Numbered from the stretch's first letter, positions 13,563 through 34,879 are shown. The stretch is 64,000 bases of DNA from an uncultured Pseudomonadota bacterium (GCA_963843375.1 CAWJKT010000006.1:32001-96000), one strand, 5' to 3'. Program-made: numbers and translations. Notes: generated from the sequence alone by a model not told the origin.

Positions 13563-13592
13563 TTGTTCGCGAAGGGTCCCCGTCTAGGAAAA
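13563..13592 (+). repeat. Cassette site 1 (degenerate)
   Basis: TTGTTCGCGAAGGGTCCCCGTCTAGGAAAA; directly abuts the stop codon at 13593. Confidence 0.75.
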
Positions 13593-14552
13593 TCAGCTTA
13601 TAACAAACACCACTCGGGATTTTCCGTGTTTTGCATTCCAAGCTTTCCCGACGTTGACGAGCGGAACAGCGGTTGTCTCGATCTGGAATTTACCGGGCAG
13701 AACCGCCTGCATCACATCGTTAGTCGCGGAGATTAGATCTTTCAGGGAAACACTTTTGATTCCGCTACCCATGAGCGCGATGGCCGAAGAACGAAGGGCC
13801 GCGCTAGGGAGCGTAATATTTGGCGAACTCATCGAGCCGATTTGGACGAAACGGATCGGCACGGCTTCTTTTCCCGCCTTTGCCCCGGCAATCATAATCC
13901 TCTCGGCGCTTGGTCCCCAGAGGTAATCCAAGACGACATCGACTCCATCACCTCCGAATTGCTCCTTTAAAGCGTCCTCAAAGGCGTCACCGCTATCACC
14001 GAGCGGGATGATCACCTCCGCGCCTAAACCCTTAACCTTTTGCAGGGAGTCAGAATCGCGGCCCGTGGCGATAATTTTTTTTGCGCCCAAATATTTCGAG
14101 ATTTGGACAGCCAGTTTTCCCGCATTTCCAGTTGCGCCATTGACCAGAACGATTTCACCCGCTTTGAATGCCGCCCGTATTCTGAGTGCCGCCATCGAAG
14201 ACATGCCGGGGTTAGCGATCGCCGCCGCGGTCACGTCGTCCACTTGGTCAGGCACAGGAAAACAGTTTTCCTTTCGAACGAGAACTTTTTCGGCCATGCC
14301 GCCGAAGGGAGCTGACGGCATCACGAAGTACAATCTTTTTCCATTCGAATTTTGGCCAACGCCGTCAATCCCAACCACCATGGGGAATAGGCTTGAAGAA
14401 CTGTAATGTTCACCTGAAGCCCGGGATTTCGCTAAGTTCGAGAGGGCGGATGCCTTGACGGTTATCAGTTCATGCCCCGCTTGGGCAGTTGGTTCCTTAA
14501 AATCCCCATAGACGGGCACTTGGTTAGGTCCGCTAACAATCGCAGCTTTCAT
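13593..14552 (-). CDS. MDR-family (zinc-binding ADH / quinone oxidoreductase-like) oxidoreductase
   Basis: GIDGVG, AAAIANPGMSS, VLVNGATGNAG, DVVLDYLWG. Confidence 0.85.
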   Translation of the reverse strand: MKAAIVSGPNQVPVYGDFKEPTAQAGHELITVKASALSNLAKSRASGEHYSSSSLFPMVVGIDGVGQNSNGKRLYFVMPSAPFGGMAEKVLVRKENCFPVPDQVDDVTAAAIANPGMSSMAALRIRAAFKAGEIVLVNGATGNAGKLAVQISKYLGAKKIIATGRDSDSLQKVKGLGAEVIIPLGDSGDAFEDALKEQFGGDGVDVVLDYLWGPSAERIMIAGAKAGKEAVPIRFVQIGSMSSPNITLPSAALRSSAIALMGSGIKSVSLKDLISATNDVMQAVLPGKFQIETTAVPLVNVGKAWNAKHGKSRVVFVIS

Positions 14553-14592
14553 GATGAGTCTCCTTTCCAGTAGAAGAATTTCGAGTTTTCAT

Positions 14593-14622
14593 TTGTCCGC
14601 GACGGGTCCCCGTCGTGGACAA
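14593..14622 (+). repeat. Cassette site 2
   Basis: TTGTCCGCGACGGGTCCCCGTCGTGGACAA. Confidence 0.95.
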
Positions 14623-14701
14623 CCCATTACCTAACCCCCGAATTCCCCGGTGTTGAATTCCTGTGAAGCACAGGGGGAAGTCCGGGCCCCTAGATTATAC
14701 T

Positions 14702-15229
14702 TTAAGGGCTTTTTCGTGAATTCCTGGCACTCCGCCTATTTCCCTTTGGCCTTGACCCCATGTTTTTAATCCACCAATACTCATATTGATTAATGATTAT
14801 TTCTCGTCTTTTTAAATGAGAATCAGCAAGTTTTTGAAACGAGATATTTTCAATTTCCCCTTGGGTTAAGTTCATATTTTCATTCGATTTAAAATCATCT
14901 AACGTTCCAAACTGTTTATTAGTAATCTCCGATAATGCAAAGAATGCCGCAACCCGAATACTTGCTTTTGAATTGGACAAATATTTAATTAAATAAGAAA
15001 CCGCATCTTTTCCCATCTCAATCACATCTTTATATTCTTTTGGCTCAGAAATTATTGCCAAAGACATACGATTATCAATCCAATATTTGCCAAAACTCTG
15101 TACATTTTCGTTCGTAAAGTTTTCTATCTGAACTGGTACTTTTGTTTCGGCCAAACAAACTAATACGGATAGCAATGCACTGCCCCAGATAAAAATCTTT
15201 GAGAAAAAAATGAATTTCTTATTCGTCAT
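14702..15229 (-). CDS. Hypothetical exported protein with a HEAT-like repeat
   Basis: AT-rich ORF, N-terminal hydrophobic segment, MGKDAVSYLIKYL...IRVAAFFALSEI HEAT-like motif. Confidence 0.6.
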   Translation of the reverse strand: MTNKKFIFFSKIFIWGSALLSVLVCLAETKVPVQIENFTNENVQSFGKYWIDNRMSLAIISEPKEYKDVIEMGKDAVSYLIKYLSNSKASIRVAAFFALSEITNKQFGTLDDFKSNENMNLTQGEIENISFQKLADSHLKRREIIINQYEYWWIKNMGSRPKGNRRSARNSRKSP

Positions 15230-15246
15230 TTATTCTTTCTAATCCT

Positions 15247-15276
15247 TTGTCCAATCCGGGCCCCCGTCGTGGACAA
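15247..15276 (+). repeat. Cassette site 3
   Basis: TTGTCCAATCCGGGCCCCCGTCGTGGACAA (centre T>C). Confidence 0.9.
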
Positions 15277-15288
15277 CGCTTTTTCGTC

Positions 15289-15558
15289 TTATTCAAATAA
15301 ATCTGAATGTGTTCCGGTTCTTTCAAAAATGATTTCATTTGCAGAAAGCTTGTAAATCAAAAGCCAATCTGGTTCCAAATGGCATTCCCAGCGGTCCTTG
15401 TAATTCCCCGAAAGTTTATGATTCCGTAATCGAGCGTCCAAGACACTCTGAGCGATTAACCGATTGGCGACTTCCTTGAACTTTTCAACCGGTTTACCGC
15501 GCCGAAGCATCAACTTGAGGTCTTTTTGAAATTGATTGGTATAGGAAGGATTGAGCAT
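15289..15558 (-). CDS. yafQ: YafQ-family mRNA interferase toxin
   Basis: FQKDLK...HKLSGNY...ECHLEPDWLLIY...RTGTHSDLF. Confidence 0.9.
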   Translation of the reverse strand: MLNPSYTNQFQKDLKLMLRRGKPVEKFKEVANRLIAQSVLDARLRNHKLSGNYKDRWECHLEPDWLLIYKLSANEIIFERTGTHSDLFE

Positions 15559-15818
15559 CAGATGCCGAGTTTACGGAACATGTCCTCAGCATTCTTGGTT
15601 CGAACCAGATGTCGCCCTTTATCCGTGGACTTGAAAACGGCCTTCGTTTTCGCGTTCGGCAGGGCGACTTCAAAAGGAAGCCCGCGCCTCAAGAGGATTT
15701 GACTATAAAAAATGGAAATGGCCTGGCTGGCCGTAAGCCCCAGTTGATGCAACAATTTTTCTGTATCTGCTTTCAAATGCGGTTCCAACCGCGCACGGAC
15801 CGTCGCTTCTTTTGCCAT
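15558..15818 (-). CDS. dinJ: RelB/DinJ-family antitoxin
   Basis: VRARL...LGLTASQAI...GLPFEV..PN; stop overlaps the toxin start. Confidence 0.88.
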   Translation of the reverse strand: MAKEATVRARLEPHLKADTEKLLHQLGLTASQAISIFYSQILLRRGLPFEVALPNAKTKAVFKSTDKGRHLVRTKNAEDMFRKLGI

Positions 15819-15882: not shown

Positions 15883-15912
15883 CTGTCCAATGCGGGTCCC
15901 CGTCGTGGACAC
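15883..15912 (+). repeat. Cassette site 4
   Basis: CTGTCCAATGCGGGTCCCCGTCGTGGACAC. Confidence 0.9.
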
Positions 15913-16003: not shown

Positions 16004-16321
16004 GTGATATCACCACTGCCACAATGCGTGAAAGAGATCGCAGAATTCCCCTAGGAGGTACGGGAATATCTCGCCGACGCTTTAGCACGATTGGATGAAG
16101 GTCACACGCTTTCCATGCCCCTGTCCCGGCCGATGCCTTCCATTGGAAAGGGTGTTCATGAATTGAGATTCAGGGATCGTGCTGGAATTTACCGGGTGAT
16201 CTATGTTTTGGTTGGCGCGGGAATCATTTACTTGGTTCATGCTTTTGTTAAAAAAGACAAGATGACGCCGATGCCGAATATTGATTTGGCGAAAAGACAC
16301 TTAAAGGAAGTGAAAAGATGA
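16004..16321 (+). pseudogene. higB: RelE/HigB (Gp49-like) toxin interrupted by an in-frame TAG
   Basis: Frame from GTG 16004 reads VISPLPQCVKEIAEFP*EVREYLADALARLDEG...GVHELRFRDRAGIYRVIY...HAFVKK; TAG at 16052-16054. Confidence 0.7.
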
Positions 16322-16605
16322 AACACAAAAGTACAGCGGTTGAAATCGCGAAATTGGTAGATGTTTTTCCAGCGAGAGGAATGGAGGCTATTATCAAAGC
16401 ACAACTGATAACAGCTGTTTTGCAAGCCATTCAAGTTAAGAAAATGACTCATCTGGAACTCGCAAAGCGTTCGAAGCTCCCCAGGAGCGCCGTGACGGGT
16501 ATTCTTTCAGGCAGTTTACAGAAGGTCACCATTGATCGAGTTCTTAGGCTCATTGAAGCGGTTGGCCTTATCGCTGAGATTCGAATCAGGAAACCTGCCG
16601 CCTAA
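16318..16605 (+). CDS. higA: XRE/HTH antitoxin (HigA-like)
   Basis: MTHLELAKRSKLPRSAVTGILSG HTH; ATGA overlap with the upstream toxin (toxin-first order). Confidence 0.8.
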   Translation: MKHKSTAVEIAKLVDVFPARGMEAIIKAQLITAVLQAIQVKKMTHLELAKRSKLPRSAVTGILSGSLQKVTIDRVLRLIEAVGLIAEIRIRKPAA

Positions 16606-16652
16606 AAAAGTTCCGGGAAAACATTTTCGATTAGGATAGTCAGTGATACTGA

Positions 16653-16682
16653 CTGTTCCTTCTGGGTCCCCGCCAGGGACAA
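16653..16682 (+). repeat. Cassette site 5 (degenerate)
   Basis: CTGTTCCTTCTGGGTCCCCGCCAGGGACAA. Confidence 0.75.
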
Positions 16683-16780: not shown

Positions 16781-17829
16781 CCGAGTTCAATAGTGAAGTG
16801 CACCACTTAGTCGGTTAAGACTCCGCGTTAATATGCGCGGATATGAAAACAAACTACCACCATTTAAACATTGAAGAACGAGACAAATTGGCCGTTCTCC
16901 GAAGCCGTGGCCTTAGCCTCCGGGAAATTGCTAAATCCCTTGGTCGAAACCATAGTTCTTTAGTTCGAGAACTAAAGCGGAACACACCACCTATTCGTTC
17001 TGGATACTACTTATCTCACAAAGCCCACCAACGGGCTGTTGAGCGACGACAAATCGCTGTTCACCACAAAAGACTCAAGACTCGACGCCTCAGGGCTTAT
17101 GTTGCCCGCCAACTCAAACGAGGTTGGTCTCCTGAACTCATTGCCGGTCGAGTTCAACTCCTGGACTGGCCCGAAGGAATCACACACGAAGCAATTTACC
17201 AGTGGGTCTACCAAGATGCCCCTCATTATATTCCGTTCCTTGCCAGAGCCCTCCGCAAGCGTCGAAAACGCGGCTACAGTCGCAAACACACAAAAAGCCA
17301 TATCCCATCACGCGTTTCCATCGATCAGCGTCCCAAAGCCATTCAATCTCGCAAGCAGTCAGGTCATTGGGAAGCTGACACCATTGTTTCCCGCCAGAGT
17401 CGCCCCGTATTACAAATCGTGGTCGAACGCAAAGCCCGCTACACATTCCTCAATCGTCTACCTAATCGTGAAGCGGCAACCATGCGAAAAACTATGAACA
17501 GAGCTATGTGCAAACTTCCACCCGAATTGAGACGAACCATTACTTACGACAACGGAACAGAAAACGTTGAGCATCAACTCGTCAATGCTGTTCTAGGTAC
17601 TCAGTCTTACTTTTGCCACCCATACACCAGTCAGGAAAGAGGTACGGTCGAAAATCGAGCCGGACTGGTTCGTCGACACTTTCCAAAGCGAACAGACTTC
17701 GCTAAGCTAAGTCAGTCCAAGGTCAAAGCCGTGGAACGTTAGATTAATCACCGTCCCATGAAATGCCTTGGGTTTAAAACTCCCGCGGAGGTCTTTCGCC
17801 CGGGTGGTGCACTTCGAGGTTGAATTCAG
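16781..17829 (+). mobile_element. IS30-family insertion sequence
   Basis: 26-bp imperfect terminal IRs (CCGAGTTCAATAGTGAAGTGCACCAC at 16781-16806; reverse complement of 17804-17829 matches 20/26) flanking an IS30 transposase. Confidence 0.88.
16843..17823 (+). pseudogene. IS30 transposase with premature TAG near the C-terminus
   Basis: HTH N-terminus, WSPELIAG, GHWEADT, TITYDNGTE, ERGTVEN; after TAG at 17740-17742 the frame continues INHRPMKCLGFKTPAEVF, the conserved IS30 C-terminal motif. Confidence 0.8.
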
Positions 17830-17884: not shown

Positions 17885-18967
17885 TTACTGGATAATTTTA
17901 CGGATCAGTTGGTTGAATGTATCCGCCACATAGACATTCCCCGAGGTATCGACCGCGACTCCCTCGGGGAGAAAAAACGACGCTGCGGTTGCAGGGCCAT
18001 TGGCGGAGCCATCAGCCAATGATCCCGCCAGAGTCGTGACCACGCCCCCGCTTGTGATTTTACGGACCACGGCATTATTGGTATCCCCCACATAGACATT
18101 CCCCGAGGCATCGACCGCGACTCCAAAGGGATAATAAAACGTCGCCGCGGTCCCGGTTCCGTTGTTGTATCCTCCGCTGCCCGCTCCCGCCAGGGTCGTG
18201 ACCACCCCACCGCTTGTAATTTTCCGGATTAAGCAGTAGTACGAATCGGCCACATAGACATTTCCCGAGGTATCGACCGCGACTCCGCTGGGACTATCAA
18301 ACGACGCCGCTGTTCCAGTTCCGTTGGCGGATCCCGGACTGCCCGACCCCGCCAGGGTCGTGACAAAGCCCCCGCTTGTAATTTCACGGATCATGTTGTT
18401 GCCCGTGTCCGCCACATAGACATTCCCCGAGTTATCGACCGCGATTCCAGGGGGTTGACTAAACGACGCCGCTTTTCCTGTTCCATTAACAGCGCAACAA
18501 GGGCCTCCACCAGCCAAGGTGGTAACCACACCCCCCGGCGTAATTTTACGGATCAGGCTATTGAACGTATCCGCCACATAGACATTCCCCGAGTTATCGA
18601 CCGCGACTCCATAGGGTTCATCAAACTGCGCCGCTGTTCCCGTTCCATTAGCGTATCCGCCGTTTCCCGCCTGCCCCGCCAGGGTCGTAACCACGCCCCC
18701 GCTTGTGATTTTACGGATCACGCTGTTGAGTGTATCCGCCACATAGACATTCCCCGAGGTATCAACTGCGACTCCATAGGGATAATTGAACGACGCCGCT
18801 GTTGCCGGTCCATTGGTGAATCCAATGACCCCCACTTGACCTGCCAGAGTCGTAACCTTGACGGTGTTGGCGGCATTAGTCACGGGACCAGTGATATAGG
18901 TTTTAGAACAGGCCAGGGGGGAAAAAACCGCAGATAAAAATACAACCGCGATAAAAATTCGTTTCAT
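17885..18967 (-). CDS. NHL-repeat beta-propeller lipoprotein
   Basis: Lipobox PLAC; six repeats of P.GVAVD.SGNVYVAD..N..IRKIT.GGVVTTLAG. Confidence 0.9.
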   Translation of the reverse strand: MKRIFIAVVFLSAVFSPLACSKTYITGPVTNAANTVKVTTLAGQVGVIGFTNGPATAASFNYPYGVAVDTSGNVYVADTLNSVIRKITSGGVVTTLAGQAGNGGYANGTGTAAQFDEPYGVAVDNSGNVYVADTFNSLIRKITPGGVVTTLAGGGPCCAVNGTGKAASFSQPPGIAVDNSGNVYVADTGNNMIREITSGGFVTTLAGSGSPGSANGTGTAASFDSPSGVAVDTSGNVYVADSYYCLIRKITSGGVVTTLAGAGSGGYNNGTGTAATFYYPFGVAVDASGNVYVGDTNNAVVRKITSGGVVTTLAGSLADGSANGPATAASFFLPEGVAVDTSGNVYVADTFNQLIRKIIQ

Positions 18968-19048: not shown

Positions 19049-19078
19049 TTGTCCAATCCGGGTCCCCGTCGTGGATAA
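19049..19078 (+). repeat. Cassette site 6
   Basis: TTGTCCAATCCGGGTCCCCGTCGTGGATAA. Confidence 0.9.
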
Positions 19079-19098: not shown

Positions 19099-19326
19099 TT
19101 ATTCTGTCTTAGGCAAAACCAAGGGCGAAACTTGCTTTGCTCCCCGTTTGGCTATTCCGCTAACCTTTCGGACGGGCTTCGACTTCTTGGAATGGTGACC
19201 CGTTTTCATTTCTTTTTCATGGTCAAGGACCCACTGGGGTTTTGGGTTTGCCTGAGTGGATTGGGCCCAAGCTCCCGTACCCGCCAACGCCGCCAATAGA
19301 ATAACCGCCCATAAAAAATTCTTCAT
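19099..19326 (-). CDS. Small secreted hypothetical protein
   Basis: Signal peptide MKNFLWAVILLAALAGTGAWA preceded by an AAGGA RBS. Confidence 0.55.
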   Translation of the reverse strand: MKNFLWAVILLAALAGTGAWAQSTQANPKPQWVLDHEKEMKTGHHSKKSKPVRKVSGIAKRGAKQVSPLVLPKTE

Positions 19327-19381
19327 GATTTTATTTCCTTTGATGAGGGTTTTCATCCAGACATCCCGCATGCGTCCTTTA

Positions 19382-20920
19382 TTATTCAAGTGTGCAGCCT
19401 TCGGCTGTTAGTTCCGCTTTTTCAGTCGCTACATTCGAGCCTGTCAGAGGGTTGCCGATTAAAACCTCAATAGTGGCTGCGTTTGTACCGAGCCCCGTGT
19501 TGTTTACCAAGGGCTGCAAATCCGTGATCTGGTTATTATCAAGGTACAACTCATACAAATTCGGCAACCCAGACAGGGCGGTTAAGGTGCTGATCTGATT
19601 GTTGTTGAGAATCAGGCCGTTCAATTGCGTCAACCCGGCCAGGGACGTAATGTCGGTTATCGAGTTATAAGAAAGGTTCAGGGTAGGCAAATTCGTCAAA
19701 TTAGATAGGCCCGTGGCGCTAGTGATCAGGTTATGGGTGAGAGTGAGGTCGGTCAATTGCGTCATACCGGATAGAGCCGTAACGCTGCTGATTGAGTTGT
19801 TGTTGAGATACAAGGTTTGCAATTGAGTCATTCCGGATAGGGCCGTAACGCTGCTAATCTGGTTGCTATCAAGGGCCAAATAAATCAAATTCGTCATCCC
19901 GGACAGGGCCGTGACGCTGCTGATCGTGTTGCCGTCAAGGAAAAGGTAAGTCAAATTCGTCATTCCAGACAGGGCCGTTACGCTGCTAATTAAGTTACTA
20001 TCGAGGTCCAGGTTTTGCAATTGGGTCATCCCGGACAGAGCCGTGACGTCACTGATCTGATTGCTGCCAAGGTACAGGGTCGTCAAATGTGTCAGCCCGG
20101 ACAGTGCCGTTAAGTTGCTGCCAGTGAGAGAGTCTTTGGAGATATCCAGGTAGGTTAAATTCGTCAGACCGGATAGGCCCGTTGTGATGTCGCTGATCGG
20201 ATTGGAACCGAGTGGGTCGTTGCCGCTGATGTCCAGGTAGGTCAAACCAGTGAGACCGGAGATGGGAGTAAGGACAGCGATGCTGTTATTATCCAGATCC
20301 AGGTAGGTCATGCTGGTGCAATATTCCAGTCCTTCCAGGTTCACGATACCGGCAGCGCCAGCCTGCAATGAGGTAATGGTGGCCATATCGCATTCGGTGA
20401 TGGTATCCGCGGTGCTTGCAATGATCCCGTTAGTGATCAATACGCTTTGAATGGCCGCCAAAAGATTAGCATCCGGGATACTTACGGCCGCTGAAGAGCA
20501 AGGGGCGGTTGGCGTTACGGTCGGGGTGCTTGTAGCGGGGCCGGTAGTTTCGGTTTTAGTCGGAGTAGCCGTTTTTGTGAGTGTGGGGGTAAAAGTATAC
20601 GTATAGAGGGGTGTATTGGTGATAGTGAAGGTACTGGTTGGCGTATCGGTAATGGTCGGCGAATGAGTGGGGGTTGGGGATAAAGTGTTGGTAGGAGTAT
20701 TCGTATTGGTAAATGTGTTGGTAAAGGTAAAGGTAGATGTGGGGGTGCAAGTAGGTGAAGTTCCAATCCAGCAGGCCTGGGTGAAGGTGAAAGTGGGCGT
20801 ATCGAGCACATAGAGGGTGACCGGTGCGGGGCTGGCGGGATTGTTTTTGCCGGGGCAGCCGATGGTTAAAAAGGCGGCTCCAGCCAGAAGGGCAAAAATT
20901 CCCGCGATACGTAACTTCAT
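19382..20920 (-). CDS. Internalin-like leucine-rich-repeat lipoprotein with Thr/Pro linker
   Basis: Lipobox LTIGC; TP linker; IPDANL cap; many 22-aa LRRs (LSGMTQL..L.L.SNQISSVTA). Confidence 0.88.
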   Translation of the reverse strand: MKLRIAGIFALLAGAAFLTIGCPGKNNPASPAPVTLYVLDTPTFTFTQACWIGTSPTCTPTSTFTFTNTFTNTNTPTNTLSPTPTHSPTITDTPTSTFTITNTPLYTYTFTPTLTKTATPTKTETTGPATSTPTVTPTAPCSSAAVSIPDANLLAAIQSVLITNGIIASTADTITECDMATITSLQAGAAGIVNLEGLEYCTSMTYLDLDNNSIAVLTPISGLTGLTYLDISGNDPLGSNPISDITTGLSGLTNLTYLDISKDSLTGSNLTALSGLTHLTTLYLGSNQISDVTALSGMTQLQNLDLDSNLISSVTALSGMTNLTYLFLDGNTISSVTALSGMTNLIYLALDSNQISSVTALSGMTQLQTLYLNNNSISSVTALSGMTQLTDLTLTHNLITSATGLSNLTNLPTLNLSYNSITDITSLAGLTQLNGLILNNNQISTLTALSGLPNLYELYLDNNQITDLQPLVNNTGLGTNAATIEVLIGNPLTGSNVATEKAELTAEGCTLE

Positions 20921-20980
20921 TATGGCCTCTTCCATTCTAAAAATTTTCCGTAAAAACACCCAACCCACTCGTGACTTTAT

Positions 20981-22000
20981 TTATTGGACTATTACGTTGT
21001 CAATGTAGAGGTTGACTGTGCTCCAGGAGGTGGAAGTGTTTCCGGCATAAAGTTGAATCCCGAATTGCCATATATTTGAAGGATCCACGCCTCCCTGGTT
21101 TGCGGGAATTGAAACCTGGGTCCAAGCGCCAATGGTCAAGGCAGAAAAGGCCAAACCCTGCCAGTTAAAACTGGGGCCGCCCTCTTGGACAAAAAGCTGT
21201 CCGTTGCCTTCGTTGCTGGGGTTCGCATCCACATAATAATACAGGCTGATGGTCTCACCCGTTAAATTGGTGTTTTCGTCTAGATCCGAGGGATCGCCAA
21301 AATCATACTGGATATTCGCCGCTTGGCCCGCCGCCCCGAAAGGGATTTGGATCCACGCGGAATTGGAGCCCGAATAAGCTTCGGCGGTTGAAATCGAAAG
21401 GGCGGGTACTGCCAAGGGGACCGTACTTCCGTTACCGGAAGCCCAGCCGGCGGGCACCGAACTACTGCCGTCGAAATTCCACGACAAAGTAGATGCGTAA
21501 ACAGTAGAAGTGGCGGTAGGAGTCGCTGTAGCGGTCATCGTAGGCGGCGGGGTGATGGTTGAGGTGTTAGTGGGCGTTTCCGTCGCAGTGGGAGTAATCG
21601 TGGACGTTGAAGTCAAAGCACCTGTAATTGTGGCGGTTGGAGTTCCGGTATTAGTGGAAGTCGCTGAATGGGTCGGCGTGTTTGTCGCTGTAGGAGTGGC
21701 TGTGTTGGTTGTTGATGTTAAGGTCCTAGTGGGAGTCGAAGTAGCGGTACTCGTCTGGACGACCGTGAGGGTTAAAGTTTGTGAAACCGCCGCGGTCGCG
21801 GTTTGAACCGCCGTTTGAGTAGCCTGCACAATCCAAGTGGCGGTCGGGGGGGCTGGAGTAGCGGTGACACCAATAATGACCGTTACAGGCGCGGGACTCG
21901 CGGGATTGGAACTTCCACAAGAGGTAATAAAAGACGCGGCGGCGGCAATGAGAATTGAAAATAAACCTAAAGTAAAGATTCCGACCGAACGAAATTTCAT
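20981..22000 (-). CDS. Lipoprotein with Thr-rich stalk and C-terminal beta-sandwich (CBM-like) domain
   Basis: Lipobox ITSC; long T-rich linker; WNFD...LYIDNV terminal domain. Confidence 0.65.
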   Translation of the reverse strand: MKFRSVGIFTLGLFSILIAAAASFITSCGSSNPASPAPVTVIIGVTATPAPPTATWIVQATQTAVQTATAAVSQTLTLTVVQTSTATSTPTRTLTSTTNTATPTATNTPTHSATSTNTGTPTATITGALTSTSTITPTATETPTNTSTITPPPTMTATATPTATSTVYASTLSWNFDGSSSVPAGWASGNGSTVPLAVPALSISTAEAYSGSNSAWIQIPFGAAGQAANIQYDFGDPSDLDENTNLTGETISLYYYVDANPSNEGNGQLFVQEGGPSFNWQGLAFSALTIGAWTQVSIPANQGGVDPSNIWQFGIQLYAGNTSTSWSTVNLYIDNVIVQ

Positions 22001-22279: not shown

Positions 22280-22309
22280 TTGTCCACCCTGGGTCCCCGC
22301 CGTGGACAA
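22280..22309 (+). repeat. Cassette site 7
   Basis: TTGTCCACCCTGGGTCCCCGCCGTGGACAA. Confidence 0.9.
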
Positions 22310-22902: not shown

Positions 22903-22908
22903 GGCCTC

Positions 22909-22933: not shown

Positions 22934-22949
22934 TCCAACCCATATTTAG

Positions 22950-24818: not shown

Positions 24819-25736
<918 letters not shown>

Positions 25737-26707: not shown

Positions 26708-26751
26708 GAAAAACCCTCCTTGCCTAAACCGTTACTTATTGTAACGGGTGG

Positions 26752-27069: not shown

Positions 27070-27089
27070 TTATTTTTCCCCCTTATTTC

Positions 27090-27728
27090 TTAAAACCACT
27101 CAAACCGGTAAGCCATTTCCGATCCTTTTTCCCCACCATAGGCAATCTCGGCCACGATCATGGTAAAAGGTTCGGTGTAGCGGGCCGCTTTCAGGCTGCC
27201 GATATCGTAGGGCTCAAACCCAACGTCGCTGATCAACTTGGCGGCTGTCTTCTTGGCCCCTGAGTCGTCCCCGCAATAGACCAAGCTTGGCCGGGGGCTT
27301 TTGGCCTTAGCCTTAAAGACCCCAAAGAGCACTTCACTAGGAACGGTGTTGAAGGCGCTTACCACCTTGGCTTTGGTAACTTTCTTGGCCAATTCCTCGG
27401 CGCCCGACGTGGTTAGACCTAGGATGAGTTTGGTATTTTGAGCGTCCATTGGGAGGGAGCAGGTCAGGATCACCTTGCCCGATAGGTCCTCGGCTTGTTT
27501 AAGGACCTCGTCCACCCGGGACCAATGCACGGCCAGGAGAAGGACTTCAGCCCCTTGTGCCGCCTCGGCCACCGTACCGGCCTTGGCCTTGCCGCCCGCT
27601 TCCTTGACCAGCCTTTCTAATTTCCCCTTGGTCTTGGCGTAACTAAACACCACCTCGTGTCCGGCCCGTGCCCAGAGAGTACCCAACTTGCCGCCCATCA
27701 AACCCGAACCCAAGATGCCGATTTTCAT
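27090..27728 (-). CDS. NADP oxidoreductase, F420-dependent family
   Basis: MKIGILGSGLMG Rossmann motif, SGAEELA, VVSAFNT, CGDD; start set at the ATG after GGAGG. Confidence 0.85.
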   Translation of the reverse strand: MKIGILGSGLMGGKLGTLWARAGHEVVFSYAKTKGKLERLVKEAGGKAKAGTVAEAAQGAEVLLLAVHWSRVDEVLKQAEDLSGKVILTCSLPMDAQNTKLILGLTTSGAEELAKKVTKAKVVSAFNTVPSEVLFGVFKAKAKSPRPSLVYCGDDSGAKKTAAKLISDVGFEPYDIGSLKAARYTEPFTMIVAEIAYGGEKGSEMAYRFEWF

Positions 27729-27742
27729 AAAAGCCTCCCTTG

Positions 27743-28579
27743 TTAAGTGTGCGCCATGGATGACGAAAGTTCTAAATAAGCTTCGTTCTGCGCCTGAAGA
27801 TCGGCGATTTTCTGCTTCACGGCGCCAACCGCATCGGCGCCCGCGACAAAGCGGCGGGGCGGTTTCTCCTCGTTCGCGATCTTGATCAACGCATCCGCTA
27901 GTTTGGCCGGGTCGTTCGTCTGTTTTCCACCCTGAGATCTCCACCAGATCATCTGTTGTTCACGACGTTCTTTATAATCTTCGATAACGTGCGAAGCATA
28001 GGCCGTCGACTTTTCCGAAAGCAGATCTGTACGGAAGAACCCCGGATTGACCACTGTGGTGTTGATGCCAAAAGGACCGACCTCCGCTTGAATGGACTCC
28101 ATCCAGCCTTCCAGGCCGAATTTTGAGGCGGCATAGGCCGAACAGAACTCAAAACCGATGAGCCCCGCCAGTGAAGTGATGGTGATGATGTGGCCCGATC
28201 GTTGTTTGCGCATTACCGGCAAAATCGCCCGGGTAACGTTCATCGGGCCTATCAGGTTCGTGGCAATCTGTTTCTCGACTTCTTCTGGGGAAAGTTCTTC
28301 AAAGAAGCCCGCGAAGAAATTTCCAGCGTTGTTGACCAGTACGTCAATTTTGCCGAATCGCTCGACAGCGGCTTTTGTGGCCGCCTCCGCGTCGGCAAGC
28401 CGGGTGATATCCAACTTTACTACCAGCAGGTTTTCCGACTTGCCGACCGCTTTTACCACCCCGGCTGTGTCCCGACCAGTAGCAACCACTTCATTGCCGG
28501 CGGCCAGGGCAGCCTTCGCGATATCGATTCCCATCCCACGGCCGGCACCAGTAATGAACCAAACTTTATTGCTTTTCAT
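27743..28579 (-). CDS. Short-chain dehydrogenase/reductase
   Basis: ITGAGRGMG, NNAG, YAASK, VNPG. Confidence 0.92.
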   Translation of the reverse strand: MKSNKVWFITGAGRGMGIDIAKAALAAGNEVVATGRDTAGVVKAVGKSENLLVVKLDITRLADAEAATKAAVERFGKIDVLVNNAGNFFAGFFEELSPEEVEKQIATNLIGPMNVTRAILPVMRKQRSGHIITITSLAGLIGFEFCSAYAASKFGLEGWMESIQAEVGPFGINTTVVNPGFFRTDLLSEKSTAYASHVIEDYKERREQQMIWWRSQGGKQTNDPAKLADALIKIANEEKPPRRFVAGADAVGAVKQKIADLQAQNEAYLELSSSMAHT

Positions 28580-28601
28580 GAGTATCTCCTTTTTTATTCG
28601 A

Positions 28602-29624
<1,023 letters not shown>

Positions 29625-29823: not shown

Positions 29824-29853
29824 TTGTCCACGATGGGTCCCCGTCGTAAACAA
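29824..29853 (+). repeat. Cassette site 13
   Basis: TTGTCCACGATGGGTCCCCGTCGTAAACAA. Confidence 0.9.
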
Positions 29854-29857: not shown

Positions 29858-30286
29858 TTAAAATTTTTTATATAAAAAATAACGTTTGCTTCCCTTTGGA
29901 AAAGATTTTAAAGAACCAAATTTTTTAAATCCCATCTTCCGGTAAAATTCCGGGGCTTGGAAATCGAAAGTATCCAAATGGACATACCGGCACCCTCTTT
30001 TCCGCGCAATGGCTTGCGCCTTTTGGAGCAATTGGGTGCCTAATCCCTGGTTCCGGTTCTTTTCATTTACCCAGAGGGTCTTCACGAAAAGCCATCCCCA
30101 ATAGGTCCCGCTGACCAGCCCGCCCACTATTTTACCCTTGGGGTCGACGGCTTTCAGGTCCAGGTCCCGCCAATCGAGTCGACCAATATATTTCCTGTTA
30201 TAGGAATTGAGTTCCCGGCCAACGAAGTCCCTGAACCTCTTGTTAGGCGAGTTTACGGTTTTAATGGAGCCTGAAGCTTTTATCAT
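29858..30286 (-). CDS. GNAT-family N-acetyltransferase
   Basis: LWV..K.RNQGLG..LL, LDTFDFQAPEFY.K.GF. Confidence 0.9.
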   Translation of the reverse strand: MIKASGSIKTVNSPNKRFRDFVGRELNSYNRKYIGRLDWRDLDLKAVDPKGKIVGGLVSGTYWGWLFVKTLWVNEKNRNQGLGTQLLQKAQAIARKRGCRYVHLDTFDFQAPEFYRKMGFKKFGSLKSFPKGSKRYFLYKKF

Positions 30287-30331: not shown

Positions 30332-30361
30332 TTGTCCACGACGGGTCCCCGTCGTGGACAG
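30332..30361 (+). repeat. Cassette site 14
   Basis: TTGTCCACGACGGGTCCCCGTCGTGGACAG. Confidence 0.95.
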
Positions 30362-30379: not shown

Positions 30380-31171
30380 TCAGGGCGGACTTGGTATTGA
30401 ATCCGAAGATTTCTCTGTTTCTTTTTTTAACCTTTGTTGCTTTTGATATTTAGAAAGATAGTTTTTATCGTACCAATCTTCCAATAACTTATTCCGGGGA
30501 TTATTGGGTCTTAAAAGCTCGTCAACTAAATCTTCGATATAGGGTACTGTGATCCCTTTCCCCATTCTTCCTATCAACTGTTCATCCTCATAGGGCAAAT
30601 TTAATCTTTTGCAATTAGGAATCCAGACTTCTTGAAAAAATTCATGGGCTTCTTGAATTGTGTCGTTTTCAATAACGCTATGCTCGATAACAAAAGCCTG
30701 GCGGTTAATCAGGCCCTTTTCTGCCTTATCATCAATTTTTAAAGACCGTTTTGAATTTTGAACATTAAAGAGTTCATAAAAAGCAGAAAACCAAAGCATA
30801 GGTCCACTTTTGGGTTCACCTTTATGATAGTTTTCCTGGGTAAAATTTTTAGTGACTTTAATCACTGCAAGCTTATGATTTTCATAGTCCGGCCCGGCCG
30901 AAACCGCATCCCATAAAGGTTCTGGATCACTAGGGTCCCATTGAACTTCACCCATACCGGCTTCTCCCGCAAATTGCCTAAGGGTCCAATTCCAAAGATC
31001 ATCCCCTTCTTTCACGTAAGGCGCCATGGCGGGCCGGTCATGGAGCATCTGTCGAAGCTGGGTCTCGCCCCAAGCCATCTGATCTTTGGTTAATGAAACC
31101 GGCTGATCTTGAGCTTTTATCGAAGTTCCAGAAATAAGGAAAATAATAAAAGCCACCAATAGCTTTTTCAC
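30380..31171 (-). CDS. Secreted hypothetical protein
   Basis: GTG start with AAGGA RBS and signal peptide; no recognised domain. Confidence 0.65.
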   Translation of the reverse strand: MKKLLVAFIIFLISGTSIKAQDQPVSLTKDQMAWGETQLRQMLHDRPAMAPYVKEGDDLWNWTLRQFAGEAGMGEVQWDPSDPEPLWDAVSAGPDYENHKLAVIKVTKNFTQENYHKGEPKSGPMLWFSAFYELFNVQNSKRSLKIDDKAEKGLINRQAFVIEHSVIENDTIQEAHEFFQEVWIPNCKRLNLPYEDEQLIGRMGKGITVPYIEDLVDELLRPNNPRNKLLEDWYDKNYLSKYQKQQRLKKETEKSSDSIPSPP

Positions 31172-31192: not shown

Positions 31193-31222
31193 CTGTCCAC
31201 GACGGGTCCCCGTCGTGGACAA
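31193..31222 (+). repeat. Cassette site 15
   Basis: CTGTCCACGACGGGTCCCCGTCGTGGACAA; 1 bp from the stop codon at 31224. Confidence 0.95.
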
Positions 31223-31223: not shown

Positions 31224-31631
31224 TTATTTTTCGTTCACAAAACTTTCCATTGAAACAGTAAGGTGGGGGGCGGCACGGCGGAGGGCACGGTCCTCAGTCA
31301 CGCAGGGAACCCCAAGTTTCTGGGCCAATAAGACATATTGGGCGTCATAGGCTGATATTTTGTGATGAAGCGCTATATCCAAGGTCTCAACAGGTCCCAA
31401 TTCCACTTCATTGGGAAGAATATGGGCGTAAACATCCTCCAAAGCTTTGACCGCTTTTTCTTTGGTTAATCCGCCCTGCCGGACATAGGTGATGAAAATG
31501 TTGAGGATTTCATGGCGCCAAATTCCTGGAAGTCTCCAATGTGGATCTCGTTTACGCACTTGGAGGGCTAATGGTGTCAGCGTCCCCTCGATTAGGGAAT
31601 AAGCCAATACGTTTGCATCCACGACAATCAA
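31224..31631 (-). CDS. vapC: VapC/FitB PIN-domain toxin
   Basis: (M)IVVDANVL...E..N...SAYDAQYV.LA..L..P.VTED; TTG start overlapping the antitoxin stop. Confidence 0.88.
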   Translation of the reverse strand: MIVVDANVLAYSLIEGTLTPLALQVRKRDPHWRLPGIWRHEILNIFITYVRQGGLTKEKAVKALEDVYAHILPNEVELGPVETLDIALHHKISAYDAQYVLLAQKLGVPCVTEDRALRRAAPHLTVSMESFVNEK

Positions 31632-31846
31632 GCGCGCCCCTTTTGGATTGTCTTTTTCAACCAGGCGGGAGTAATGGGAAATTTTCCCTTGATGGGTTCG
31701 GGCCAAGGGCGTTCCGAATGCCCGGACAAAGCTTCTTCCAGGAGAGCCAACGCTTCCTTGGTCATAGACCGTCGATGTTGTGTCGCGAATTCCTTGAGCT
31801 TCTTATGCACCGGTGCTGGAACATTTTTAATCAAAATATCAGGCAT
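31628..31846 (-). CDS. FitA-like ribbon-helix-helix antitoxin
   Basis: ILIKNVP..VH..LK..A..HRRSM..E...LL; GGAGG RBS. Confidence 0.85.
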   Translation of the reverse strand: MPDILIKNVPAPVHKKLKEFATQHRRSMTKEALALLEEALSGHSERPWPEPIKGKFPITPAWLKKTIQKGRA

Positions 31847-31984: not shown

Positions 31985-32008
31985 GTGTCCGGTCCCCGGC
32001 GTGGACAT
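31985..32008 (+). repeat. Cassette site 16 (6-bp deletion in left arm)
   Basis: GTGTCC------GGTCCCCGGCGTGGACAT. Confidence 0.75.
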
Positions 32009-32089: not shown

Positions 32090-33307
32090 CTAAAAGCTAT
32101 AAGATATTTGGAGGCCGCCTTTGAAGCCGCTCAAGGCCAAAGTCCAGGCAGAAGAATTGGGGGCTGGCGTTCCGGGGTAATAGGGGCTAAATTCTGCACC
32201 CCGATAAACGATCCGCTCCAGATTGCCGTTCTGGATCGGTTCGAGGGCCGCTCCAAAATCGGTTTGCACCACATCCAATGCCATTCTCTCCCCCCCCGAA
32301 CCCGGCAATGTCTGAAAGTTGGTGGCGGTGAGGATCTGGTACCCCACCGAAGGGGAAACGGCAAAACACTGCCCCAAGTCCCAATCCAATCCCACTTGAA
32401 CTTGTCCCCCGAACCCCAAGGCCCCAAAAGTCTCATTCAATTTTTCGTTTACAAGCTCGTTGGAGTTGACATTGATATATATATCGTTGATGCCGTAAAT
32501 GATCTGCATGGGAACCGCGACGACACCCCCGGAAACGAAAGGCCGGAAATTTCCGTGCGCGAAAGTGTACCGCCCCTGCACCCCTACCTCAATAGCGCTG
32601 ATACTGTAGGCATCCTGCAACCTAAGGGTGACGGGTATGGCCCCGTTAGGACCATAATATGCAGTTATAGGCTGTAAATTATTCGTCACTGTGCCAACGG
32701 GAAGGTAGGAAAAGAACAGGCCCCCCTCCAATTCCGGGGTGAGCCGGATGGAAGCCTCCAAGTCTACCTGTGGCAAAATGAACTCGGGGATATTTCCAAT
32801 GTAGAAGCGCGCATTATCCCCAGAAGAATTTAAGTATTGGCTCAGATTTTGAAACTCCACTTTGTTGTTCTGGAAATCCGCAAGATTTATCCACGATTCT
32901 TCGAAAGTGATCCGGATGTCAAACATTTTAAAAAAGGTAATATCCCTAATCGGGGGAGGCGTGATCCCCGAAAGATAAGCGGTATGAGTCTGGTATCCCA
33001 ACTGGGCCGCCCACTTTCGCAAATCGGGATTGTCCGGATGGAGAGTCAGGCTGGATTGAACGGCTGCGATCGCCTCAGCCTGATCACCCACTTGGTTATA
33101 GCTGAAAGCCAGTATCTGGTAGGCTTGCCAGGATTGGGGGTCGAGCCGGACCGCTTCCTTCAGACTGGCTATCGCTTGGTTATATTGCTCTTGTTGATAA
33201 AGTTGTACCCCGATGTTGTAGGCGTCCAGGGGTGGGTCGCCCCAAGCGGTCAAGCTTGAAAACAAAAAGATCAGCCCGAAGAAGAGGGGTATGAGCCGCA
33301 TTTCCAA
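32090..33307 (-). CDS. TPR-containing exported protein with probable C-terminal beta-barrel
   Basis: Signal peptide, TPR motifs, alternating beta-strand pattern ending GLQISYSF. Confidence 0.65.
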   Translation of the reverse strand: MEMRLIPLFFGLIFLFSSLTAWGDPPLDAYNIGVQLYQQEQYNQAIASLKEAVRLDPQSWQAYQILAFSYNQVGDQAEAIAAVQSSLTLHPDNPDLRKWAAQLGYQTHTAYLSGITPPPIRDITFFKMFDIRITFEESWINLADFQNNKVEFQNLSQYLNSSGDNARFYIGNIPEFILPQVDLEASIRLTPELEGGLFFSYLPVGTVTNNLQPITAYYGPNGAIPVTLRLQDAYSISAIEVGVQGRYTFAHGNFRPFVSGGVVAVPMQIIYGINDIYINVNSNELVNEKLNETFGALGFGGQVQVGLDWDLGQCFAVSPSVGYQILTATNFQTLPGSGGERMALDVVQTDFGAALEPIQNGNLERIVYRGAEFSPYYPGTPAPNSSAWTLALSGFKGGLQISYSF

Positions 33308-33379
33308 AACCTTTCGGCGTTCAGAATATAACTTAAATGATTATACTTCGTCTTTTGACCGACCCATTTTTCAATCTTC

Positions 33380-33409
33380 CCTACTAATTCGGGTCCCCAT
33401 CGCGGACTT
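33380..33409 (+). repeat. Cassette site 17 (left arm degenerate)
   Basis: CCTACTAATTCGGGTCCCCATCGCGGACTT. Confidence 0.6.
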
Positions 33410-33500
33410 TCTTTTCAATTCAAGTTCAAATGCGGCATTAAATGCTTCGCTTTTCTAGCGAATTTGAAGAAAAAATACGATTGCCCCATTTCCTCAAATT

Positions 33501-34787
33501 TCACTTCGGAACGACAAGGGGGGGATGGCTCTGAAGGATGGGCCGCAATTTCTCCATGGCCGCCTCGGGGGTTTCCTTTCCATCCCACACCCTTTCCAAA
33601 CCGGTCGTGATGATGTTTTCCACCTCCTGCCAATTGCCGCACAGGGGAAAATACTTCACATACTGGACGGCATCGATCAAAATTTTCTTGTTTAAGGGGT
33701 CTTTCTGGTCCAGGAAAAGGTCGGAACTCGCCATCTTTTTCAAGGCAGGCTGGGCCAATCCGCTGGCCATCCTCTTTTGTTCGGCTTCCTCGCCAGTCAG
33801 GTATTTAACCAATTTCCAGGCGGTCTGCTTGTTCTTGGATTGCCTCCATATTGCGTAACCCGAACCTCCAGTCGAAAAGGCTCGGTCTCCGTTGGGCCCC
33901 TTGGGAAGCATGGCTACATCCCATTTAAAGTTTTTGATTTCTCGGAATTGGGGTGTCCATTTCAAACCCGAAAGGTACATGGCGGCGGAACCAAAGCGGA
34001 ACATATCCGAGCCTTCGCTCTCCGTAAACCCGGCGATTTTGGAGGGCGCCAGAGAAACCTTGTGCTTATGGATCAGGTCGTAACGGAACTGAACACCTTT
34101 CAGGGTATTCGGGTCGGCGGCGAAGGTCCATCGAGTGGGTTGGTGGACGTTGTCCGCAAAGGAACCGCCCGCGCTGAAAATCCACGCGCTGGGAAGGAGT
34201 TTGTCGTCAATGAATCCCCACTGCAGAACCTCGCCCGACCGGCTCTTTTTTTGGACCTTCAAGGCCGTTTCGACGAATTGATCCCAATTCCAATTATCCT
34301 TTGGATAGGGAACATTGGCCTCGTCAAAGGCGGACTTATTGTAATAAACCAGGCACCAGGGAGCGGTGTCACGGGGGAGGACGTAAGTTCTGCCCTGGGA
34401 AGTGAAACGATCCAAAACGGCCGGATAAAAATCCGTCAAATTCAATTCATCGGTTTTGACGTAGGAATCCAAGGGTTCGAGCATCCCCTGGTTAAAAAAT
34501 TCCGCGAAATTATTGACCTCCACAAAAATGACATCCGGGCCTCCGCCTTTGAGAAAGGCCAATACCATTTCGGAGTATTTGACATAGGGAGTGCGCCGCA
34601 ACGCGACCTTTATTGATGGGTTTAATTTCATAAAGTCATTGATCAGATCGATCAGGACCTGGTTTTCCTCGATGTCACCCCAAGAGAATACGACGATATT
34701 CGATTCCTTTGGTTTTGACCCGGACTTCAAGAGAAAGTCGAGAATTGTTTCCCCTCCAGTGGACGGCAGAACCCGGCAAAAGAACAT
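33501..34787 (-). CDS. Sugar ABC transporter substrate-binding protein (orphan, no clear signal peptide)
   Basis: PDVIF, LEPLD, LVYYNK..FDEA.VPYP..NWNW, WDVAMLP, GGSGYAI. Confidence 0.8.
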   Translation of the reverse strand: MFFCRVLPSTGGETILDFLLKSGSKPKESNIVVFSWGDIEENQVLIDLINDFMKLNPSIKVALRRTPYVKYSEMVLAFLKGGGPDVIFVEVNNFAEFFNQGMLEPLDSYVKTDELNLTDFYPAVLDRFTSQGRTYVLPRDTAPWCLVYYNKSAFDEANVPYPKDNWNWDQFVETALKVQKKSRSGEVLQWGFIDDKLLPSAWIFSAGGSFADNVHQPTRWTFAADPNTLKGVQFRYDLIHKHKVSLAPSKIAGFTESEGSDMFRFGSAAMYLSGLKWTPQFREIKNFKWDVAMLPKGPNGDRAFSTGGSGYAIWRQSKNKQTAWKLVKYLTGEEAEQKRMASGLAQPALKKMASSDLFLDQKDPLNKKILIDAVQYVKYFPLCGNWQEVENIITTGLERVWDGKETPEAAMEKLRPILQSHPPLVVPK

Positions 34788-34865
34788 GGGGGTCAGCCCC
34801 CACGAGAAGCAATTGAAGTTTAATCATTATAACAAGCCCTGGCCAAGCTGAGGTGCATAGCGTTC

Positions 34866-34879
34866 TCCATCGTGGGCAA
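34866..34879 (+). repeat. Possible right half-site remnant (site 18)
   Basis: TCCATCGTGGGCAA matches the right arm of site 9 at 13/14 positions. Confidence 0.4.

Follow-up and report, generated by a model that had tools for sequence, protein, structure and literature searches.

The 64,000-nt stretch of DNA analysed here, called the window, is positions 32001-96000 of contig C6 of the studied genome (G000:C6:32001-96000; G000 is 80% complete). Window positions 13563-34879 are an array of about 17 mobile gene cassettes, without a recombinase gene of its own, in which the cassettes are separated by copies of a 30-bp site. The units of the array are very probably recombination cassettes, and it is fairly likely that the complete system is a serine-recombinase cassette platform, in which such cassettes are moved by a short serine recombinase. 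A family of sites, its link to the ends of genes, modular reassortment of the cassettes, a hybrid site and a linkage between recombinase gene and site were demonstrated computationally, and these carry the argument below.

The 30-bp site in the window, the genome and the family

The original prediction had described 17 co-oriented copies of the site and a half-site at 34866, and all 18 positions were inspected. A profile was built from 15 window sites with nhmmer and run across the entire genome. In the window it gave 15 strong matches (19.9-34.5 bits), which start at 13563, 14593, 15247, 15884, 16654, 19049, 22280, 22951, 23467, 24290, 24784, 25703, 29824, 30332 and 31194, and two matches to decayed sites, one at 31991 (8.9 bits) and the other at 33387 (11.6 bits). 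For the half-site at 34866 the profile gave no match at E<=10, and it was seen by eye only, so that 15 of the predicted positions are strong and two to three are decayed. The plus orientation was the best-scoring one for every window site. Elsewhere in the window the profile was silent at E<=10, in agreement with the prediction that the rest of the window is free of copies. A search with the full 30-mer consensus, with two free central bases, returned only seven matches at <=3 mismatches (none in 100 shuffles), because the left arm of the site is variable.

The sites were expected to be intergenic, and every one of them is located between open reading frames (ORFs) accepted as genes, though those at 16654, 22951 and 23467 touch or overlap longer mechanical ORFs. 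It was also borne out, by ORFs and Pfam matches alike, that the cargo is on the minus strand with the exception of a Gp49/HTH_37 (higBA-like) pair and an IS30-type transposase. A cassette runs from a right arm, 1-80 bp past the stop codon of its own gene, to the next left arm upstream of the start codon. The cargo includes toxin-antitoxin (TA) systems (YafQ/RelB, two PIN-domain genes and the HigBA-type pair), two GNAT acetyltransferases, oxidoreductases, NHL, leucine-rich repeat (LRR) and tetratricopeptide repeat (TPR) proteins, and four proteins without a Pfam family. The features are given below by window coordinates and strand; G001 is a same-genus relative (99% complete, 5 contigs) and G045 another relative.

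11546..13456, plus: DEAD-box helicase gene of the left flank (Pfam DEAD and Helicase_C; 83% to G001:C2:324943-326877)
13563..13592, plus: site 1, left array end, right arm decayed (23.8 bits)
13593..14552, minus: cassette 1, zinc-type dehydrogenase-like, 319 aa (Pfam ADH_zinc_N)
14593..14622, plus: site 2 (32.4 bits; 1 mismatch to the 30-mer)
14702..15229, minus: cassette 2, 175-aa protein, no Pfam family
15247..15276, plus: site 3 (29.5 bits)
15289..15818, minus: cassette 3, YafQ toxin and RelB antitoxin (Pfam)
15883..15912, plus: site 4 (29.4 bits)
16091..16605, plus: Gp49-like (HigB-type) and HTH_37 (HigA-type) pair, strand opposite to that of the remaining cargo (Pfam)
16605..16652, plus: 3'-terminal remnant of a short serine-recombinase gene, with spacer (match to G045)
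16653..16682, plus: site 5, former recombinase-proximal site (19.9 bits; TGTTCCTTCT-type left arm)
16843..17742, plus: IS30-type transposase inside cassette 5 (Pfam HTH_38 and rve; many 66-67% copies in G001)
17885..18967, minus: cassette 5, NHL-repeat protein, 360 aa (Pfam)
19049..19078, plus: site 6 (30.8 bits)
19099..22012, minus: cassette 6, 96-aa ORF, LRR protein (528 aa) and 343-aa protein
22280..22309, plus: site 7, its right arm in the hybrid junction (28.5 bits)
22316..22946, minus: cassette 7, PIN toxin and upstream antitoxin-like small ORF (Pfam PIN)
22950..22979, plus: site 8 (28.5 bits)
23006..23473, minus: cassette 8, GNAT acetyltransferase (Pfam)
23466..23495, plus: site 9 (28.8 bits)
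23536..24228, minus: cassette 9, PhyH-type dioxygenase (Pfam)
24288..24317, plus: site 10, its left arm in the hybrid junction (31.8 bits)
24385..24759, minus: cassette 10, 124-aa protein, no Pfam family
24784..24813, plus: site 11 (33.5 bits; 30-mer identical to site 14)
24819..25670, minus: cassette 11, aldo-keto reductase (Pfam)
25703..25732, plus: site 12 (28.2 bits)
25775..29621, minus: cassette 12, AraC regulator, CMD, NADP oxidoreductase, SDR and aldo-keto reductase (Pfam)
29824..29853, plus: site 13 (29.8 bits)
29858..30286, minus: cassette 13, GNAT acetyltransferase (Pfam)
30332..30361, plus: site 14 (33.5 bits)
30380..31171, minus: cassette 14, 263-aa protein, no Pfam family
31193..31222, plus: site 15 (34.5 bits)
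31224..31706, minus: cassette 15, PIN-domain protein, 160 aa (Pfam)
31985..32007, plus: site 16, decayed, with an internal deletion (8.9 bits)
32090..33307, minus: cassette 16, TPR protein, 405 aa (Pfam)
33380..33409, plus: site 17, decayed, left arm lost (11.6 bits)
33501..34787, minus: cassette 17, solute-binding protein, 428 aa (Pfam SBP_bac_1)
34866..34879, plus: possible half-site (right arm), marking approximately where the array ends on the right, upstream in terms of transcription (by eye only)

The anatomy of the site was derived from a logo of 204 sites, taken from the studied genome and 26 regions of relatives (G001, G010, G021, G023, G042 and G045). Each site consists of a variable left arm (TGTCCA, four free bases and GGG), a near-invariant asymmetric centre in which TC sits inside GGGTCCCC, and a conserved right arm, CCCGTCGTGGACAA. 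Conservation is 89-98% at T2, G3, T4, C5, C6 and A7, 93-99% at G12-C19 (GGGTCCCC) and 82-98% in the right arm at G20-A29, the conserved portion being positions 12-29 plus TGTCCA at 2-7. Positions 8-11 are free, and CGAC, CGAT, CGAA, ATCC and ATGC are all common there. The central dinucleotide is TC in 195 of 203 sites and is flanked by two inverted half-sites. The predicted layout of 30 bp, with 14 bp on each side of TC, therefore stands, but the description of the site as a palindrome applies only loosely, as a perfect palindrome is found in only 10 of the 203 sites.

At all 14 arm positions the pairable fraction equals the expectation from independent columns (e.g. 0.73/0.72, 0.57/0.58 and 0.64/0.61). 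The arms thus vary independently, indicating that there is no selection for a stem, which argues against an RNA hairpin, a terminator, a repetitive extragenic palindromic (REP) element or an attC-like folded strand, and for two predicted protein-binding half-sites on duplex DNA. No Rfam family was matched in the window.

Within the window the motif occurs only in the array, as had been claimed, but it also occurs at other loci: in all, 68 sites of >=17 bits were found in the genome, distributed over about seven arrays and about six single positions. Besides the window array, these arrays are at C6:7.5-24.5 kb, C6:254-271 kb, C9:93-135 kb, C9:242-271 kb, C10:142-145 kb and C18:48-60 kb. A 19-mer of the site had 93 matches in the genome, compared with 0 for the reversed control. 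Orientation is uniform within each array, and at 59 of the 68 sites the gene on the side of the conserved arm ends toward the site, typically 1-80 bp off.

Among 40 relatives searched at <=2 mismatches, the site was found in 22 of the 24 other genomes of the FCPU426 family and in the single genome of a sister family. None of 13 genomes from seven other families of the phylum carries it, and three scattered 2-mismatch matches in one other-family genome look like chance. Exact matches in a species-level genome collection came mainly from candidate division FCPU426, single matches in high-GC actinomycetes being probably due to chance. That a 19-base intergenic sequence has remained unchanged in every letter over more than 16 genera suggests that a conserved protein recognises it.

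A different explanation of these data would require no dedicated recombinase. The site would then be a REP-like or terminator-like element at the 3' end of acquired genes, and exchange would occur by homology or microhomology between the repeats. The position of the sites just past stop codons is compatible with this, and terminators with a hairpin and T-run were predicted at two sites, for one of these on both strands. However, no covariation maintains a stem, the terminator scan found fewer terminator-like matches in the array region than in shuffles (22 vs 28.5), and it is sequence rather than structure that has been kept over more than 16 genera. The sites are also clustered, with their orientation tied to gene direction, so that the genome-wide scatter expected of REP sequences or terminators, which the original prediction had proposed as a check, was not seen. 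REP elements have hundreds of scattered copies, often as inverted pairs, and a Y1 transposase, whereas here there are 68 sites in about seven arrays, and no Y1 (RAYT-type) transposase (PF01797) was found in the 80% complete genome. We therefore consider this explanation quite improbable.

Reassortment of cassettes and a hybrid site

If the units of the array are recombination cassettes, close relatives could be expected to keep the flanks of the array but differ in its content, and for the left flank this was observed in G001. The left flank is syntenic, with window 875-13464 aligning at 73-84% identity through the DEAD helicase. The homology ends about 10 nt past the helicase stop codon, and beyond this point G001 has other genes and one good site. 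An identical gene order in relatives, which would have spoken against the original prediction, was not found, as window cassettes are located elsewhere or are reordered in G001, and in the alignments homology begins and stops at sites. The YafQ/RelB unit (15280-15875) is found at G001:C4:818981-819580 in another context, with an identity of 88%, above that of the flank, and with homology ending at both sites. The PIN unit is 80% identical to G001:C4:512225-512855, and the TPR cassette is 80% identical to G001:C4:360372-361612, elsewhere in that genome. The GNAT unit (29816-30361) is 75% identical to G001:C2:1194834-1195380, which is inside another array and has different neighbours; the G001 copy adjoins a relative of the NHL gene (C2:1195549-1196325), while in the window the two are 11 kb apart.

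The profile detected no site near the YafQ/RelB and PIN copies of G001, and alignment showed one decayed site-like stretch, beside the YafQ/RelB copy only. These copies, located outside any array, may be chromosomally fixed cassettes or source genes.

Reassortment was also seen when the 204 sites were compared pairwise. A homologous 120-bp flank on one side is shared by 54 pairs (26 on the left and 28 on the right), and none of these pairs shares both flanks. Shared cassettes thus always have a different neighbour on the other side of the site.

A second array, in the opposite orientation, is located 7.4 kb before the window start (G000:C6:7.5-24.5 kb). The two inverted arrays bracket a conserved 21-kb block with GH44 and the DEAD helicase; relative to the right-hand flank (window 49960-60000), the block has the opposite orientation in G001.

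The array is present in public soil and lake metagenome runs, and Logan contigs of four runs, from four studies, were aligned to window 13300-33299. In three of the runs, from three studies (X1, X2 and X6), a contig passes from 23613-24298 directly into 22291-22518. The matching bases on the shorter side of this joint (24298->22291) number 228, 255 and 56, and no mismatches occur in the listed X1 pieces. The joint consists of the left arm of site 10 and the right arm of site 7, two sites which have only nine bases in common there, GGGTCCCCG. These contigs were assembled from words of 31 bases, and an assembly of this kind has no means of creating a false join over a 9-base repeat. The exchange point is bounded by the contigs to GGGTCCCCG, and as the hybrid joint falls within the central 9 bp, the exchange would have taken place inside the conserved centre of the site. 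Junctions that run from one site to another were among the products that the original prediction had suggested looking for, and the hybrid site in contigs from three studies is such a junction. It is expected from a circle of the PIN pair, GNAT and PhyH cassettes, and a tandem copy, or another strain in which the order is circularly permuted, would give the same junction.

The joint is in the longest stretch shared by the two sites, which is what exchange driven by homology would also give. However, nine shared bases are far below the needs of RecA-dependent exchange, and exchange by homology leaves the tight linkage between recombinase and site, described in the next section, unexplained.

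In a second X2 contig, 21660-22309 is joined to 24282-24813 via 367 unrelated bases, indicating that the three cassettes between sites 7 and 10 have been replaced there by a different small unit. Further contigs leave the window sequence exactly at site edges, namely at 15246/15277 (X2 and X6), at 19075 (three X1 contigs) and at 22309.

Other breaks were not accepted as events. Loose contig ends occur at 24782/24783 and 24814 (site 11); those at sites 11 and 14, whose 30-mers are identical, are ambiguous and possibly effects of assembly. The joints 19082->22281, 30360->22951, 30363->31192 and 31223->24783 were discarded as site-only matches, with about 31 bases on the shorter side, and those at 28772-29662, which have a shorter side of 21-28 bases and fall within cassette 12, were likewise disregarded. 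An X2 contig skips 813 bases inside the NHL-repeat gene (window 17917-18731), with 33 bases common at the joint; this joint (17917->18731) was rejected as a site event and attributed to a change in copy number within the gene.

A short serine recombinase as the candidate enzyme

The window retains a relic of a recombinase gene. At window 16605-16681 there is a match (82% over 77 nt, E=6e-15) to G045 that covers the final 35 nt of its recombinase gene, the following spacer and the first site, and the relic frame ends in ...GKHFRLG*, compared with ...GKHFRIR* in G045. The unusual left arm of site 5, TGTTCCTTCT, is of a kind that also adjoins recombinase genes in G042, G018 and G045. The relic and its match to the 3' end of the gene indicate that site 5 (16653) is a former recombinase-proximal site, and the plus-strand higBA-like pair occupies the place of the recombinase gene.

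A similar relic is present at about 134.2 kb on C9 of G000 (C9:~134190-134250 and C9:133707-134189), beside a site at C9:134161. This site directly follows an arsenic-resistance-type operon, with ArsR-, glyoxalase-, ACR3- and ArsC-like genes identified by translation only.

In G000 there are two Resolvase-domain matches, one of which is a 281-aa gene at C9:137160-138005, about 2 kb past the C9:93-135 kb array. It is the only intact copy of the short recombinase in the genome and is on a different contig from the window. In the orthologues of G001, G045 and G042 (275-278 aa), the first array site is 14-35 bp past the stop codon and the cassettes are on the opposite strand. At all seven intact short-gene loci with enough downstream sequence (G001, G022, G042, G045 and the metagenome contigs L220, L221 and L223) a site is found 8-110 bp past the stop codon; one further contig ends 22 bp past the stop codon and was left out. 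A site also follows all three C-terminal fragments of the gene, two in G042 and one in G018. The site adjoining the G000 copy is split by a group II intron (RF02003, 119 bits; ORF for a reverse transcriptase/maturase), with half-sites on both sides. The closest paralogues are full-length recombinases of 503-637 aa with 34-57% identity, and no site of >=10 bits was found beside them at 11 genome loci and 74 metagenome loci. Full-length serine recombinases were therefore rejected as the enzyme.

The intron itself is single-copy (G000:C9:135166-137110; L176 ~7166-9110) and begins with GTGCG directly after TTGTCCACGACG. It may disable its target site as DNA.

The short recombinase contains the Resolvase and Recombinase domains only (PF00239 and PF07508), retains the catalytic YVRVSSK motif and aligns to the first ~280 of 542 CcrB positions, its best sequence-family matches being CcrB, CcrA and XisF. 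It is under strong purifying selection, with a ratio of nonsynonymous to synonymous substitution rates (dN/dS) of 0.05-0.16 where dS is unsaturated. In a collection of 5.8 billion proteins it forms 19 clusters of 275-283 aa with 74-100% identity, all with Resolvase and Recombinase domains. None of the 19 clusters has the zinc ribbon (PF13408), which is carried by many longer relatives, and these longer relatives are separated from the short clusters by a gap, with an identity of <=61%. The best structural matches of an AlphaFold model (mean pLDDT 78.6) were to the Bxb1, SPbeta-type and PhiC31 integrases, in their N-terminal halves only, and the C-terminal part of the model matches the recombinase domain of the LI integrase-DNA complex. 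In large serine integrases it is the recombinase domain that touches the inner half-site, and the outer part is contacted by the zinc ribbon; for a recombinase lacking the ribbon, a site of about 28-30 bp would then be predicted, in line with what is seen here. The short serine recombinase is likely to be the enzyme.

Another possibility is that the cassettes are true cassettes but are moved in trans by a tyrosine recombinase, Xer-like or other, using an 11-8-11 core with exchange in GGGTCCCC, the short serine recombinase being only cargo or a neighbour. We regard this as unlikely. It could explain why most site-rich genomes are without a Resolvase-domain gene, and the genome has 14 tyrosine-recombinase matches, one of them about 2.5 kb from the C18 array. 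However, no tyrosine recombinase recurs beside the arrays, there being none that does so in G000 and one near the roughly 11 clusters of G001, whereas the site follows the short serine recombinase at every checkable locus and never the long paralogues. The recombinase remnant in the window also speaks for the serine enzyme. Finally, a 14-2-14 layout with an asymmetric dinucleotide is the pattern of serine recombinases, as in gix, hix and res site I, which have an asymmetric central dinucleotide.

Weak profile hits near multi-copy tyrosine recombinases were also considered, but these are four identical 19-nt matches inside a repeated element and were rejected as chance look-alikes. The tyrosine recombinases of G000 include three tandem genes at C8:95843-98242, resembling a 'recombinase in trio' element, and about six diverged integrases of 366-386 aa spread over the genome.

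Several observations weigh against a platform driven by the short serine recombinase. The scarcity of the recombinase gene in site-rich genomes is the main weakness: a Resolvase-domain match is found in only 12 of 31 family genomes and an intact short gene in only 5 of 31, and the near-complete genomes G005, G010, G021 and G023, with 37-54 site matches each, have none. Such genomes recall attC clusters that have no integrase, but genes could also have been lost in the binning of metagenome-assembled genomes; 11 of the 19 short-recombinase clusters are found only on contigs <5 kb, as expected for a gene abutting a repeat. An all-against-all comparison of the ORFs of the seven G000 arrays and their surroundings showed no recombinase that recurs beside them, but only a 14-member NHL/LRR family and a few shared cassettes. 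The only intact copy in G000 has the intron-split site next to it, and the assignment of the enzyme rests on the adjacency of gene and site. The 8-bp centre of the site is >93% conserved, which would fit the overlap region of a tyrosine recombinase, and in G001 one tyrosine integrase is located about 5.5 kb from one of the approximately 11 site clusters. Sites 14 and 15 and part of site 17 resemble terminators, which could reflect a second role at mRNA 3' ends. The hybrid joint is known from assembled contigs, in which a circle, a tandem copy and a permuted order are alike.

The coupling of arms to flanks belongs with these observations. It was assessed in 51 usable pairs, three pairs with masked bases having been dropped. 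Left arms differ at 2.27 positions when the left flank is shared and at 3.00 when the right flank is shared (one-sided p=0.08), which is a trend only, and right arms show no difference (p=0.43), in pairs which are not independent. Among the best-conserved pairs (flank score >=85), which are few and also not independent, those sharing the left flank (n=9) have 1.1 left-arm and 3.4 right-arm differences, and those sharing the right flank (n=7) have 2.6 and 1.4, respectively. High-identity flank pairs thus keep only the arm adjoining the shared flank, though the overall trend is weak. As the trend is non-significant, the coupling was not accepted as proof of the crossover point, and the claim for the crossover rests on the hybrid-joint contigs.

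Two side observations concern the surroundings of the arrays. The 14-member protein family, which includes the NHL and LRR proteins of the window (17885-18967 and 19382-20968), is the largest shared around the G000 arrays, with 10 members inside arrays and 4 in array flanks. Upstream of the short recombinase, at a distance of up to about 3 kb, G000, G045 and G042 encode an ArdC-type anti-restriction/zincin protein with 47-51% identity between genomes (L176 13023-13979, L172 4686-5558 and L173 4526-5476), and in G000 a pRiA4b ORF-3-like gene and a RadC-like gene (by translation) are also near it. The recombinase end of the arrays may therefore border a conjugative or mobilisable element.

Proposed mechanism and comparison with known systems

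A gene-capture or shuffling platform with a site other than attC and a recombinase other than IntI had been proposed originally, and this was supported by every test run. With moderate confidence, we favour a second, independently evolved 'integron', in which a minimal derivative of a large serine recombinase would act in both directions on identical 30-bp duplex sites and, throughout the family, move cassettes of one or several genes as circles between several chromosomal arrays. The enzyme would be the family-specific serine recombinase of 274-283 aa, with a catalytic domain, a long alpha-E helix and a 'recombinase' DNA-binding domain, and without zinc ribbon and coiled coil. We infer that its dimers bind the two 14-bp arms and that the DNA is cut at the central TC with a 2-nt stagger, after which rotation, strand exchange and resealing would follow. 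Recombination between two direct sites would free the cassette or cassettes between them as a circle with a single hybrid site, which in plus-strand terms would consist of the left arm of the upstream site and the right arm of the downstream site. The circle could then re-enter at any other site, and in a single orientation because TC is not its own complement. As there is no coiled coil, there would be no distinction between attP and attB, leaving both directions open. The recombinase gene is at the transcription-downstream end of some arrays and convergent with the cassettes, and the window array, which lacks such a gene, would have to be served in trans by another copy.

The likeness to integrons, and to clusters of attC sites lacking an integron-integrase (CALINs), is considerable. 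In both, long co-oriented arrays of mostly single-gene units carry TA, GNAT, small-enzyme and unknown cargo, the recombination site is at the 3' end of the gene, many arrays have no recombinase gene and content varies between close relatives. Group II introns targeting attC sites are known in integrons, and the group II intron inside a site here is a parallel to them. It could therefore be asked whether the array belongs to an integron or CALIN whose attC sites are unusually short and whose IntI was missed, for which the co-oriented single-gene units, TA pairs, GNATs and orphan genes would be typical cargo. This is very improbable. The best match to IntI (TIGR02249) in G000 scored 47.5 bits against a cut-off of 265, and none of the 31 family genomes exceeded the cut-off. 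The sites are 30 bp long, half the length of the shortest attC, and, as the original prediction had stated, their flanks lack the RYYYAAC and GTTRRRY ends. They also lack structural covariation, and the crossover is in the middle of the site rather than at its 3' end. Of five features by which an integron was judged, co-oriented cassettes of varying content were the only one found, and the integron was rejected.

The differences from integrons extend to the mechanism. IntI is a tyrosine recombinase, whereas the candidate enzyme here is a serine recombinase. The attC site is a folded strand of 55-140 nt kept as structure, and the site described here is a 30-bp duplex kept as sequence. The attC crossover is at the 3' edge of the site, while here it would be mid-site, leaving each cassette with one arm at each end. 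IntI is divergent at the promoter-bearing attI, whereas the recombinase gene is transcription-downstream of the cassettes and convergent with them.

With the large serine recombinases (CcrAB and CcrC of staphylococcal cassette chromosome (SCC) elements, and Bxb1, PhiC31, SPbeta and LI), which gave the best sequence and fold matches, the candidate enzyme shares the catalytic and recombinase domains. It differs from them in stopping after the recombinase domain, without zinc ribbon and coiled coil, and a single family of sites is used in place of an attP/attB pair. SCC elements can accumulate in tandem at one site; the units here differ in being 0.5-4 kb long, with dozens per genome in several arrays.

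The site itself is most like those of the small serine recombinases, namely res site I of the gamma-delta/Tn3 resolvases and the gix and hix sites of Gin and Hin, which are crossover sites of about 28-30 bp with inverted half-sites and a 2-bp asymmetric core. The outer TGTCC motif may resemble the end of a resolvase half-site. Unlike in these systems, none of their accessory sites or enhancer was seen here, a larger 'recombinase' DNA-binding domain is present in place of a simple helix-turn-helix, and the outcome would be gain, loss and shuffling of cassettes rather than cointegrate resolution or a two-state switch.

A further comparison can be made with the pdif modules of Acinetobacter plasmids, on which XerC/XerD act. 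Their sites are 28-bp imperfect palindromes with one conserved and one variable arm, the modules are small and often contain TA systems, and the arrays have no dedicated recombinase gene. However, pdif sites alternate in orientation and resemble the chromosomal dif site, whereas the sites here are co-oriented and GC-rich and a serine recombinase gene is linked to them. No description of a system such as the one proposed was found in the openly accessible literature, subscription journals and supplements being outside its coverage.

Integrons are the textbook gene-capture machine, and their defining feature is a tyrosine integrase that acts on folded attC strands. If the serine-recombinase cassette platform is true, cassette platforms would be a convergent solution, the same architecture having evolved at least twice from unrelated parts. 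The enzyme would be a naturally compact, cofactor-free serine recombinase of about 280 aa with a 30-bp site, which would be of interest for DNA-integration tools. The platform also raises the questions of whether the loss of the zinc ribbon and coiled coil frees a serine integrase from attP/attB directionality, and of how cassettes come to be expressed with the recombinase located at the distant end of the array. For the phylum itself, which is uncultured and widespread in soil and peat, it would mean that integron-finding software misses a whole class of accessory-gene reservoirs.

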